From Chrysomallon squamiferum (Eukaryota > Animalia > Mollusca), in assembly GCA_012295275.1 (NCBI GenBank), contig CM022668.1, positions 10,292,001-10,356,000 on the forward strand: a DNA stretch of 64,000 nucleotides, in the 5' to 3' direction. Below the pieces are notes generated by a model, which was not told the origin of the DNA, made no database searches, and saw only the letters and a program-made list of their open reading frames with translations. Of this stretch, positions 6,401 through 53,900 are shown in pieces. Positions within the stretch are counted from its first letter, which is position 1. Each line of letters opens with the position of its first letter. The position numbers and the translations under genes were made by a program.

Positions 6401-9400
6401 TACTGATTGTATGATGACCCTTACTGATTGTATGATGACACTTACTGATTGAAAGATGACACTTACTGATTGTATAATGACACGTACTGATTGTATGATA
6501 ACTCTTACTGATTGTATGATGACGCTTACTGATTGAAAGATGACACTTACTGCATAAACTGTGGAATGAAAAAAGTTCGTAAAGGAATATTATAATGATC
6601 TAATTTTTCTGATTTTTTGTCCGTTTTCATATCTTTAGGAAACAAATACACTGTCGATTTCACGTCAATCCGAATATTATATTGAGGCCTACAACAGAAA
6701 GGATCAGTTAACCACTAGTTCAGTACTTTCTTACGAATTGAACACGTTTGAAAAATACACAGACTTGATATGTTGATATGAACCAGACATGATACTGTAA
6801 TGAAATTTAAAATTCTATCTCTGTGTTTCTCATTCACTAATAAATACGTACTTGTTGTACAGTCTGTAGACTCGTATCCTCTTTGACAACCATCAACACA
6901 AGTTCCATTCACATGATCACAAATTAAATTTTCAAAACATTTACGATCTGTACATAAATTTGAACAGTTCTGTCCGTATCTGTCACGTGAACATTCTGAA
7001 ATATAGAGATATAAATTACAAAAGCTGAACGTAAAGAAAGATTACTTTATAAAATAATAAAAAAATAGCAAAATATAAAGGAATATATATACATATAATT
7101 ACAAAAATGGGACGTTTACTGAATGTGTGATGACAACTAGAGATGATAATGACATGTCTGCATGATGAGATTTACTGATTGTAAAAAGACAATGATGACA
7201 TTCTATGATGACATTTACGGCCATGTCTTGAACACACTGTATAATGACATGCAATGAATTGTGGCAATTACAGTCGCTTTACGACGCTTATTCATTACGT
7301 AATTTTTTTTATATAAAGTTTTACGAAAATACAGATGTATTTATGAATCGTTCTAGTATTGTAATATTTATATCAGTATACGTTTTTTAATTACACTGAT
7401 CTGTTACATGGCTTTCAATTAAATTTGTTTTAAGCAACCATATTGCTTATCGATGAACAAAGTTTTACTTTGTATTCTTACAGGCGTTAATGGATAAGTT
7501 AGATATATCTGTATTTCCAATGTAATATATATCTTACGTTGTTTGCAGTCAGCTGAAATGAAGCCTGCAGTGCAACCATTGTCACATTTTCCTGTTACGT
7601 TGTTACACGTTGATGAACCTTTACAGTGTCTGGCAGAACAATCTTCACCACACAGTTCACCATAGTGACTGGAATCACACACTGAAATGCATGTATAAAA
7701 TTAATATAAAACATTCCTAAAGTAGGTACCCTAAACAATGATATTAAATTAACCTACCCATTTTCCAACTGCGTACAAATCTTCTTAAACAGGAATACCA
7801 TGATAACATTATAGCAACAGAGTTTACCTGGTCTCTGAATAACACACGCACGCGCACACACATTTATTGTTCTATTAATAATTGTTTAATGAATTAAATA
7901 ATTATAACCCTTAACAATTTTATGTTAATAAACTGTTTATCGTTTCGGTATGATACCATTACACGAGGACTCAGTCCAGTTAGTCTCACATCCGTCAGAA
8001 CATTTTCCAGTAGTGTAATTACAGGGATGTGTTTTACAATGACAAAACTCAGTACAGTGTTCACCATACGTTCCAGGGTCACACACTGAAAAGTAAATGT
8101 AAATAGAATAATCGTGAGGAATTAATACATATTGTTCTTTAATAAATTATTTTAAAAAATGATAAGAAAACACTTTTTTACAATATTCTTGTGTTACATA
8201 TTAAAAAAGAAATTAAACAAAACGACTGAAAAATAATAATGAATATGACTATAGTGACAATTCCGATAATAGTGATGATGATGATATATATATATTTATA
8301 TATATATATATATGTATGTGTGTCTGTGTGCTGACATATGTATTCAAATGTATCTACATCTTATGTGTGTGTACGAGTGGTTCTAAATGTGTTTACTAAA
8401 TGTTTATACATGTAATTAATGTACTTATAAAGTCTACATACCAAAAACTTGAACTTCACAAAAGTCCATTGAAAAGTCGCCTTTGTTTCTGTAAAGTGTG
8501 ATGTATCTAGCATTTTCATTACAGGTCAGATGTGTTATATTTGGACTGTTTATATCTGTTTTACCACACAAGTGTCCTGTGTTAATCTGGTTTGACTCCT
8601 TAGAGCTGTAGAGTTCAACACCATCTCTGCGATCAGTGTCTAAAAAGTAATAAAATATGTATATCTCTCTATCTATATCTGTATCTAAACACACACACAA
8701 TTTTGTAAACATACATGCATATAGACATGTACACTGATTAATCAATTAAAAACAACTGCAACAATACATCAGTCGACACGTTGGCATTATGTTAAACATA
8801 GATTCAAAAGAAGCCGTTATAAGAAATAACGAAATAAGTGGTCACTATGGAATCCGAAAATAAGATATGACAGCAGAATTATCTAAACTTTAAAGTAAGG
8901 TTTTCTTCCTATTTTCATGTACAAATAATTTGATCTGTGAATGTGTTTCTATGTTTCCTTCCTTGAAGAACATAATTAAAAATAGTAAAGTATATATGTA
9001 TTTTTCTTTGTGTATTGTTTTTATACACCTTATTTATTTAAAAATGAACTAAAATGAGTAAATGATATAAAAATGAGTATTAATCATATTATTATTATAT
9101 ATAAAAAATTTACACAAAAGCTACTAATCAACTACCACGACAACTATTATTACTATTATGATTATATTAAGCTCCTTTCTTTAGAACGTATCTAAAATCA
9201 AGACTAGTAAAAAGTATAAAATAATTTATGAAAGTAAGTAGAGATAAGATAAACTTACAGTCAGTTCTGAAGTAAATGATTACTTCTTGTATGAAATAAA
9301 AATCTCCCAGGTCTACCTCCCACCAGCTGGGTTGGTTACTGACATTTGTTAGAATACAGTAAAAATCAGTAGCCCTGGTGTCACCATCTACTGCCAGTGA

Positions 9401-50900: not shown

Positions 50901-53900
50901 AATGTGACATGTCTCTGTGTACATCTGTATCTAAACACATGAAAAAGTTCCTAGACATACATGCATATAGACACAACACTAGTTACTCACTAAAAGGAGC
51001 TATAACAATATAGCAAGCGACATCTTAGCATTATGTTAAATGTGGATTCGAAACAAACCGTTACAAGAAATAAAGAATTAAGTGGTCGATATGGAATCTA
51101 GAAACAAAATATGACAGCAGAATTATCAAAACTTTAATGGATAATGTGTTCCTGTTTTCATGCACAAATAATTTAATCTATGAATGTGTTACTATATTTC
51201 CTTCTTTGAAACATTTAATTAAAACAGTGTGTGTGTGAGTGTGTGTATGGATATGTATGTGTGTGTACTGTTTTATACAGCTTATTTATTGTGAAAATAT
51301 CTGAACTTTAATTATGCAAGAATAACACATTTTAAAAAATTATAAATAAAATAAAATAAAATAAATAAGGAAAAAGAACAATAAGTAAATGACCTAAAAA
51401 TGAATAGTAATACTAATATTATATATATATACAACATTTACAACAACTGCTACTACTACAACTACCATGACTACTACTATTACCATCGTGATTATCTTAA
51501 ACTTCCTTCTTTAGAAAGTATTTAAAATCTATAACATTATTTATGAAGGTAAAGTAGAGATAAGGTAAACTTACAGTCAGTTCTGAAGTAAATGATTACT
51601 TCTTGTATGAAATAAAAATCTCCCAAGTCTACCTGCCACCAGGTGGGTTGTTTATCAACGTCTGTTAGAATACAGTGAAAATTAGTAGCTGTTGTGTCAC
51701 CATCTACTGCTAGTGAAGAATTCTGATAAATGAGTAGGTAATAAGAACTTTGTGTGGTCTTCTTACCAAACGCAACGTTTCCTAGGATAAATAAATAAAT
51801 AATAAATAAAACTGTTAATATATATATATATATATATATATATTATATACATACAGACATATGGAAATAAATTAAGCAGCATCCAGTTCATGGACCTATC
51901 ATTCTGTGATTTAAGTAAACAGCGCATTTTGCTGAATAATTTATTGACTCGCTGAATAGTATGACTTTCGTGGAGATACTCAATGCACATACAACAACAA
52001 GCAACGCGCGTGAAATGTCACACCCACAACAGTGTTCAAATCAAGTGTGTAATTATTACACTCTCATACTTTCTTCTGGCAATGTGCATTGAATATTTAG
52101 TTCTATAATTGTCACTCTATACTGTAAATTGTCAGAGGCTACAAGGTAACAAAGTATTGGAATCAGAAATGCAGGAATGTTCCTCAGACAAATTGGACGT
52201 CAGCTTGGGCGCAGTATTTCCATCGTTTCCAGACTTTTGAACAAACACAGGGCTGCCGTTCAAGGGATTAATTCGTATCTTTAAAAGAGCAGTGTTTATC
52301 ACAGAGAGCAATTTACTGCGGGACTAAAAGGAACAGAGCAGGTATCAGAAGACCTATCAATGTATAAAACTGTCTCCAGTTCACAAAGCAGCAAGATTTG
52401 CCTCGTGTAATCAACGTATTCGCTGGAACTCGGCATCATGGCGAAGGGTTTACTTTTCCGATGAGAGTCGTTTCTTCCTGTGTGCAATGGATGATTGTAC
52501 ACATATCTAGAAATAAGGTAAAATACCCATTGTTCCCCGCAATTTCAGGGATACGGTTTCTTTTGGAGAAGGGGCAATCATGGTGCAAGATGGTCCTCAT
52601 CACCATGCGCGATATCAATAAGAGATCCTTGAAGAGTTGGTATGCCTCATATTCATAATCATCCTCTAGCCACATGACTCATCTTCACGCACGACAGTGT
52701 CAGGTATCACAGAGCTCGTGGAGCCACGCAGTTCTTGCAACAGAATGCAGTTGAGACAACTCAGTGTCCAGCCATGAATCCAGATATCGATCCCACTTAG
52801 CATTTGCGGGACATTTCAGGATGTTATGTTCAACAGAGAGACACTCCTTTCCAGTCTTTTAATGTATTAAGGATTTGAACAGGGTTGGAGCAGGACTGGA
52901 ACAGAATTGGAACAGGATTCCTAAAAGTCAAATTCTGCGATTTATCCAAGGAATAAGGGGTCATCGTGAAGCATTTAATCGTATGCAGGGAGGTTACACC
53001 AGATACTGATGCAAGACAGTGATCAAGATGTGTGCATGATATTGACAAGTAAGTCTGTGAAGTACTTTTCCAAATCTGTACACTCTTCAGTTAAATCACA
53101 TTATGAGCTATCTTTCTGCTCATCGCTCTCTTTTCAATGAAATTCCATTTGGTATGGAAATATTTGACAAATTATATGCACAATGTATGTACGTATGTGT
53201 ACACACACCCACCCACACAAACATCCACACAAACACACATATACACTTACACATACACATGAACATTCATACATAGTGCATGCAGACAGAAAAACATACA
53301 TGGAAATTATGAAGTTTAAATATATTTACCAATTGTGCATTTTGGACCTGACCATCCATTTATGCAAGAATTAGGGCCGCCATTACATCCTGTGACGTCA
53401 TCACAGTTATTAATATCACAGTGACACGTGTAGTTACAGTTCAGTCCATAGGTTCCTTGTGTACAATCACCTAGCAACACAGTATGACATCAGTAATGAC
53501 AACATAAGCGTAATTAATGTCACTCTATGATGTCTAAAAATATTCACTAAATTAATCTTCACAGTCGACAGTCAAAAACATAATGATAAACAAACAAACA
53601 AATAAATACATCGAAGTAGAAACAAAAAGAATGTTGTTTGTTTTTCTTTAACAAAACACCCAATATATTCCTAGTTTAGCTTATTAAAATAATTTCCGGC
53701 GAAGATAGAAAATCTCGTCTTTGTTTAGCGTGAAAGTCGTTTATCTGTTAAGCTGTGTTTCATTAGATGCATTCGTTTTGTACAATTGTATCTAGTCTCT
53801 ATGTATGTATGTATGTATGTATGTTTGTATACGTTAAAAAGCATTTCTCAATAATCGAGAATAGTCATGGTACGTTATTCGTTACTTTTGAATGCAATTT

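Follow-up and report, generated by a model that had tools for sequence, protein, structure and literature searches.

Clustered F-type lectin receptor genes of Chrysomallon squamiferum combine variable loops with a near-constant scaffold

Here, we describe a cluster of candidate receptor genes in a 64-kb window (the whole stretch of DNA analysed; contig CM022668.1, positions 10,292,001 to 10,356,000) of the mollusc Chrysomallon squamiferum. The window is AT-rich (30.7% GC), contains numerous microsatellites and carries seven genes or gene fragments with one common plan, all on its minus strand: a signal-peptide exon, one EGF exon, an F-type lectin domain encoded by two exons, four to nine further EGF exons, a transmembrane exon and a tail. 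Among the lectin copies, replacement differences are concentrated in loops that resemble the complementarity-determining regions (CDRs) of antibodies. The gene layout, the clustering, a contrast in silent-site divergence between loops and framework and one long converted block are established. We lean, by a modest degree of belief, towards the explanation that the genes share their scaffold through exon-limited conversion of the lectin framework and of the next two EGF exons, and that the loops escape it, likely through selection.

Gene layout at the locus

A scaffold gap of 200 N (35025..35224, no strand) separates two similar gene series. To its right lie genes A (with a second lectin subtype), B (lectin copy R6) and C (R5), and to its left genes D (second subtype), E (a fragment), F (R2) and G (R1); all genes and exons given below are on the minus strand. 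A preliminary description of this DNA had placed lectin exon 1 at 9465-9259 (R1), 18357-18151 (R2), 40828-40622 (R5) and 51781-51575 (R6), and both its translations and its coordinates proved correct.

Gene G (R1, 1064..11995) starts with a signal-peptide exon at 11995 and an EGF exon at 11180. Its lectin exon 1 matches PF22633 (E=5.5e-8) and PF00754 (E=3.6e-7) and holds the loops CDR1 (9427-9401), CDR2 (9382-9359) and CDR3 (9346-9326), and lectin exon 2 (8442..8639) holds the end of CDR4 and, at about 8490-8467, CDR5. EGF exons at 8085, 7681, 6995 and 5788 and a transmembrane exon at 5307 follow. The tail comprises juxtamembrane exons at 4821 and 4151 and exons at 3437-1064 that run past the window start and lead into a protein tyrosine phosphatase (PTP) domain (PF00102, E=1.8e-9); the first PTP domain begins here and the window ends before the catalytic loop. 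Gene C (R5, 35225..43731), which is cut by the N gap, has the same PTP-type transmembrane and juxtamembrane exons as gene G, and its lectin exon 1 is identical to that of R1.

Gene F (R2, 12854..19773) encodes a signal peptide, one EGF, the lectin domain (exon 2 at 17488-17291), four EGFs, a transmembrane segment (13843) and a tail exon of 115 aa (13202-12854), which ends in YxxL-x9-YxxI, a sequence resembling an immunoreceptor tyrosine-based activation motif (ITAM). Gene B (R6, 44994..54165) repeats the layout of gene F, ITAM-like tail included. The second lectin subtype is found in gene A (55055..63702; lectin exons 61217-61005 and 60336-60136), with five post-lectin EGFs, and in gene D (26664..35024; 34436-34223 and 33467-33267), with nine; both continue into a transmembrane segment and an ITAM-like tail, and the 5′ end of gene D is lost in the N gap. 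Gene E (21635..24901) is a fragment with a signal peptide, one broken EGF, a transmembrane segment and a truncated tail, and is devoid of a lectin domain.

The idea that R1-R6 are repeats inside one protein was rejected: each comes with its own signal peptide, transmembrane segment and tail, and the lectin copies are therefore separate genes. For one family member, splicing (E0-L1-L2) is confirmed by an RNA contig from run X6 (depth 4). This contig has 27 differences from R1 in lectin exon 1, and its overhanging ends correspond to the EGF exon upstream and to lectin exon 2.

Two of the copies retain traces of former exons. Between the last EGF exon and the transmembrane exon, gene B (47860-47640) and gene F (14800-14680) contain decayed remnants of EGF exons that lack clear splice sites. 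Gene D has intact EGF exons of a similar type, which indicates that the length of the stalk varies through exon gain and loss (4, 5 or 9 post-lectin EGFs). In both gene G (6129-6678) and gene C (37493-38042), the intron that precedes the last EGF exon contains a conserved minisatellite of 21 nt. R1 (9950-10560), R5 (41233-42270) and R6 (51849-52750) share an insert-like non-coding block, possibly a decayed mobile element, in the intron upstream of lectin exon 1; it is absent from R2 or unalignable there.

Defects are also seen. Gene B carries a TGA stop in its first post-lectin EGF exon (50302-50174), which equals that of R2 except for the single base that creates the stop. The exon is 129 nt long and symmetric, so that its skipping would preserve the frame; it may be a skippable exon, a recent null or an assembly error. 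Lectin exon 1 of genes A and D shows +1 frameshifts in A-runs, at different places in the two genes, which may be real and mark pseudogenes or may be homopolymer assembly errors.

Loop variation and silent sites in the lectin domain

The domains belong to the F-type lectins, as indicated by matches to the solved lectins 2j22 (E=2e-6), 3cqo (E=9e-6) and 1k12 (E=0.011) and by a PF22633 score above cut-off; lectin exon 2 alone matched none of the solved lectins. The cation motif h2DGx is present as AVDG, with x being Asp in R1, R5 and R6 and Val in R2, and the Cys50-Cys146 pair is present as C107 and C200. In the fucose-binding motif given for F-type lectins in the available text of PMC5712786, His...R-x-D-x4-R/K, both arginines and the aspartate are retained and the histidine is replaced by Leu109; His stands at this position in 65% of the family alignment, which comprises 187 domain hits from 150 listed HMMER proteins. 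The vicinal cysteines are lost as well. Given the missing histidine and cysteines, the residues of the pocket suggest that the ligand is probably not canonical fucose, though both arginines remain. HMMER found only distant F-type lectin proteins, with 29-47% identity, among the 150 matches listed, and word-based protein searches with R1 exon 1 (against longer proteins), R2 exon 1 (against proteins of near length) and the juxtamembrane exon found no close relative, which counts as weak evidence.

R1 and R5 are identical in lectin exon 1, and the signal of variation therefore rests on three distinct sequences. Among R1, R2 and R6, 29 of the 134 lectin-domain residues vary, and they are concentrated in the loops, as had been proposed: 20 of 40 residues vary in CDR1-5 and 9 of 94 elsewhere (Fisher p=8e-7). 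The counts for exon 1 are 16/24 in loops and 2/44 outside them and, from CDR1 to CDR5, the loops contain 4/9, 7/8, 5/7, 1/8 and 3/8 variable residues, the last of these corresponding to a fourth patch that had been suspected near CDR5. The loop limits were set between conserved anchors of the eel-lectin alignment after the data had been seen; a boundary-free permutation gave p=0.003, the best three 7-residue windows containing 15 of the 29 variable residues.

Patches 1 and 2 align to the segments of eel agglutinin (1k12) that contain Leu23/Glu26/His27 (CDR1) and Phe45/Tyr46 (CDR2), as far as the accessible part of PMC5712786 describes them. That the variable residues occupy one face would follow from this alignment to 1k12. 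The limits given above for CDR3 and CDR5 are putative and come from the family alignment. The earlier claim that the variable loops surround the sugar pocket stands as regards the mapping of the loops; the pocket itself lacks the histidine of the fucose triad and the vicinal cysteines. Outside the five loops, residues 155 and 173 of R1 (at about 8595 and 8541) show three states in three copies and possibly form a second variable surface; position 155 is variable also in all four DNA runs compared.

The second lectin subtype of genes A and D differs in the same three loops. Other individuals add further loop variants, one of them spliced in RNA; among the 40 listed of 80 rows, 29 of 35 variant places fall in CDR1-3 and 23 of 35 already vary within the window.

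At silent sites the framework is nearly invariant, in agreement with the preliminary description (3 of 82 third positions vary), and silent changes too are enriched in the loops (6/19 third positions, p=0.001). At fourfold sites, the three pairs, which are not independent, show 0/65, 2/65 and 2/67 differences across the framework of the lectin domain and the two EGF exons that follow it. The introns between these exons differ at 145/753, 167/867 and 114/577 positions (19-20%), and intron divergence is already 17-18% at 20-40 nt from the exon edges. Loop third positions, with 4/22, 5/27 and 4/24 differences (around 18%), are near the intron level. Counted by column, 4/164 third positions vary in the framework plus E1 and E2 versus 19/103 in the other three EGF exons (p=1.6e-5), the GC content at third positions being similar. 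Because silent divergence of the loops equals that of the introns and that of the framework is far lower, the framework appears to have been homogenised, rather than the loops being merely fast.

DNA-level exchange between paralogs is seen in a block of around 2.2 kb (11040..13200, minus strand) that extends from the tail exon of the upstream gene to the signal-peptide exon, intron and first EGF exon of the next gene. The block before R1 is 2-7% diverged from the block before R6, and the next intron is around 20% diverged; in counts, the signal-peptide intron differs between R1 and R6 at 15/457 positions and the next intron at 168/822. Five sites in the coding sequence group R1 and R6 against R5 and R2.

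Conversion, selection and alleles

A model of how exon-limited conversion and selection might act together can be outlined. The genes would be about as old as their introns, and exon-to-exon conversion would erase differences in the framework, stopping near the exon edges because the introns have become too dissimilar. Selection would remove any conversion event that replaces a loop. The loops would thus keep intron-level silent divergence, and replacements would accumulate in them at a roughly neutral rate or somewhat above it. The outcome would be local peaks of silent and replacement divergence at the loops; the available passages of PMC3924837 describe such peaks as marks of selection in duplicated genes under conversion.

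Diversifying selection on the loops was the explanation first offered for this pattern. Selection of some kind is likely, whereas a ratio of replacement to silent divergence (dN/dS, omega) above 1, the absence of which the preliminary description had named as refuting its idea, is not clearly seen: omega of CDR1-3 is 0.71 when the loops' own dS is used and 1.6-2.0 with borrowed clocks (p 0.02-0.06). With a single-clock codon model, CDR1-3 gave 1.97 (p=0.06) for the domain only and 1.99 (p=0.023) for the whole ectodomain, and CDR1-5 gave 1.36 (p=0.35). The single clock is itself rejected, dS being around 0.40 in the loops versus 0.07 in the framework (p=0.0007), and an omega of 2 was therefore discarded as proof of selection, since the assumption of a shared clock fails. 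When the clock was fixed at 16% intron divergence, omega of CDR1-3 was 1.63 (p=0.056), and a calculation by hand from the 19-20% divergence of the lectin-adjacent introns gave around 1.3; loop dN is 0.29 versus an intron divergence of around 0.22.

How else could near-constant frameworks and divergent loops arise? If the duplicates were young and positive selection drove point substitutions in their loops (dN/dS above 1), conversion would be unnecessary. The whole-ectodomain omega is in line with this, as are three loop positions that carry three different residues across the copies and the selected sites around the same pocket that the accessible part of PMC5712786 describes in oyster bindin. 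We nevertheless consider it unlikely, in view of the rejected clock and of the CDR1-5 value, and because introns diverged by 19-20% mean that the duplicates are not young. The loops might also simply tolerate change and drift near-neutrally, with a framework that mutates less or is held by strong purifying selection reaching silent sites (splicing signals, mRNA structure). Loop omega is indeed indistinguishable from 1, positions that vary in the window are more variable family-wide (mean entropy 2.86 vs 2.18) and some copies may be pseudogenes. Yet equally tolerant columns outside the loops vary much less (among columns with entropy of at least 3 bits, 6/32 versus 13/22 in loops, p=0.004), other exons of the same genes have ordinary silent divergence and exchange between paralogs is visible in non-coding DNA, so that this explanation seems to us improbable. 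A variant in which spliced transcripts serve as templates, cDNA-mediated conversion then stopping at exon edges, would account for the step from 0-3% at exon silent sites to 17-18% in the flanks within 20-40 nt; but diverged introns stop DNA-templated conversion as well, the only long tract that is clear spans intron and intergenic DNA and no intron loss was seen, all of which leaves it with very little likelihood.

The gap raises a different issue, that of alleles. Between 9450 and 3950 (5.5 kb, introns included), genes G and C diverge by 0-4% in each 250-nt bin, and this near-identity, together with the fact that gene C ends at the gap, suggests that they are possibly alleles assembled twice; gene C is likely an allele (haplotig) of G or a very recent duplicate. 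By extension, the two series flanking the gap could be two haplotypes placed in tandem by the assembly, with R1/R5 and R2/R6 as allele pairs and with loop differences that are partly balanced polymorphism. We regard this as quite conceivable, though not as probable. The same gene order on both sides of the 200-N gap and the roughly 0% divergence of R1 and R5 over 5.5 kb speak for it, and so does the finding of the R1-specific codon 181 in just one of four DNA runs. The exact R1 exon 1 sequence is present in three of the four DNA runs (two studies). In run X4, each of the four contigs that cover CDR2-3 has 10-22 letters different from R1, with an X4 intron around 95% like that of R1 (unphased), which hints at loop differences between individuals. 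In the opposite sense, the divergence of 16-21% between the introns of R2 and R6 and between those of A and D is on a par with that of clear paralogs, and contigs can demonstrate presence and cannot demonstrate absence. Haplotypes would be compatible with conversion plus selection and would alter the gene count.

Exon-limited conversion with loops that escape it, the explanation we favour, has several points against it. There are only three distinct lectin sequences, and R6 and both second-subtype lectins look broken, so that some of the divergence may have arisen after function was lost. With the loops' own dS, omega of CDR1-3 is not significantly above 1. The framework stretches between the loops measure just 12-24 nt, which is short for conversion tracts. 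In a comparison confined to these copies, the low silent divergence could also stem from selective constraint on silent positions or from reduced mutation in these exons. The control exons E3/E4 are perhaps not orthologous for R1, whose intron there is unalignable with that of R2 or R6, and divergence may be overstated in alignments of AT-rich introns. Among the listed variant places of other individuals, 12 are new relative to the window, of which 7 lie in loops and 5 in the framework. Finally, the signalling roles and the ligands are predictions from sequence.

Tails, related receptors and significance

The window genes show the hallmarks of paired receptors, namely similar ectodomains, linked genes and different tails. 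The tail of genes A, B, D and F has around 115 residues, several tyrosines among them, and its final YxxL-x9-YxxI fits the ITAM consensus, YxxL/I-x6-12-YxxL/I. The second Atlas match of the tail is a cluster of mostly molluscan origin (score 0.92), which offers no more than a lead. In the PTP exons of gene G, the phosphotyrosine-recognition loop reads KNRF (3437-3350) instead of the usual KNRY. A common scaffold would offer a number of binding specificities, coupled in some genes to a phosphatase that likely damps the signal and in others to an ITAM-like tail that likely activates. Such anatomy, with variable loops, a constant stalk and phosphatase or ITAM-like outputs, recalls paired immune receptors and suggests a receptor function; by the same analogy, a role in immune or self/non-self recognition is probable.

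With a signal peptide, EGF repeats, a fucolectin-like domain and one transmembrane segment, the window genes have the ectodomain and membrane plan of the MEGF/galactose-binding domain (GBD) receptors. In the accessible passages on Biomphalaria, the LG5R and SudRes1 resistance regions contain clustered EGF and fucolectin receptors of type 1B (short tail) or 1C (PTP) (PMC13712769, PMC12297450). These 'scavenger class F-like' receptors share with the window genes the same ectodomain elements and single transmembrane segment, and their cluster shares the joint presence of short-tail and phosphatase versions, gene fragments and extracellular diversity among paralogs. The short tail is described in those passages as having no identifiable domain, whereas that of the window carries an ITAM-like motif, and the passages contain no analysis of loop-level variation or of conversion. 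Tandem PTP domains mark the snail 1C form, in which the catalytic motif is intact, and antistasin genes lie beside the snail cluster. In open-access text we found nothing that links an ITAM to the mollusc EGF/fucolectin receptor family, and nothing on this receptor family in the cephalopod literature.

Other F-type lectins also vary in their loops. The available text of PMC5712786 reports that variation among eel agglutinin and the Japanese eel isoforms eFL-1 to 7 is concentrated in CDR1 and CDR2. Eel lectins and window domains thus have the same fold and loop-focused isoform variation; however, the former are soluble and strictly keep His52 and CDR4, whereas the latter have Leu in place of the histidine, lack the vicinal cysteines, vary in CDR3 too and form part of a putative signalling receptor. 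In oysters, sperm bindin shares an F-type lectin domain with a central intron; it is diversified around the pocket and some of its isoforms lack the basic triad. The same source places bindin in the acrosome, gives it 1-5 domains in tandem and reports eight positively selected sites. The window genes differ in having one domain per gene, a transmembrane segment and a tail, and no clear omega above 1. In all, what is already known is the receptor family (Biomphalaria 1B/1C) and the loop variability of F-type lectins (eel, oyster), and variable loops in such lectins are expected in themselves.

Siglec and SIRP are paired receptors of vertebrates, and the CD300A/C pair is said to undergo concerted evolution as well. 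CEACAM is described as a set of paired receptors under concerted evolution in the available text of PMC7042247. Similar ectodomains on opposing tails and conversion with protected functional patches are shared with the window genes, as far as the portions seen of that literature go. The vertebrate fold is unrelated, and the window has an intrinsic phosphatase in place of an immunoreceptor tyrosine-based inhibitory motif. Opsins offer the reverse arrangement in the accessible part of PMC3924837, since their introns are homogenised and one exon escapes, whereas here exons are homogenised and introns and loops escape.

The pattern is therefore genuine, and the window genes add a new member to a receptor family that is already known. 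The selection first proposed is plausible, though unproven, and framework conversion explains much of the contrast between loops and scaffold. The homologous Biomphalaria clusters sit under association peaks for schistosome resistance. The locus suggests that specificity might reside in three loops on an almost invariant scaffold and that conversion plus selection might maintain variety; it also suggests how two kinds of tail may signal. Binding tests with swapped loops would be simple, given how little the scaffolds differ. We put forward, tentatively and as a proposal that is less likely than not, that these are molluscan paired F-type-lectin receptors with PTP and ITAM-like tails. Exon-limited conversion would keep their scaffold uniform, and the three antibody-like loops, which would differ among individuals, would be either shielded from it or exchanged among the copies. 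If so, the cluster would constitute a germline-encoded set of on/off recognisers whose ligand is not fucose and which could serve in the recognition of pathogens or of self and non-self.

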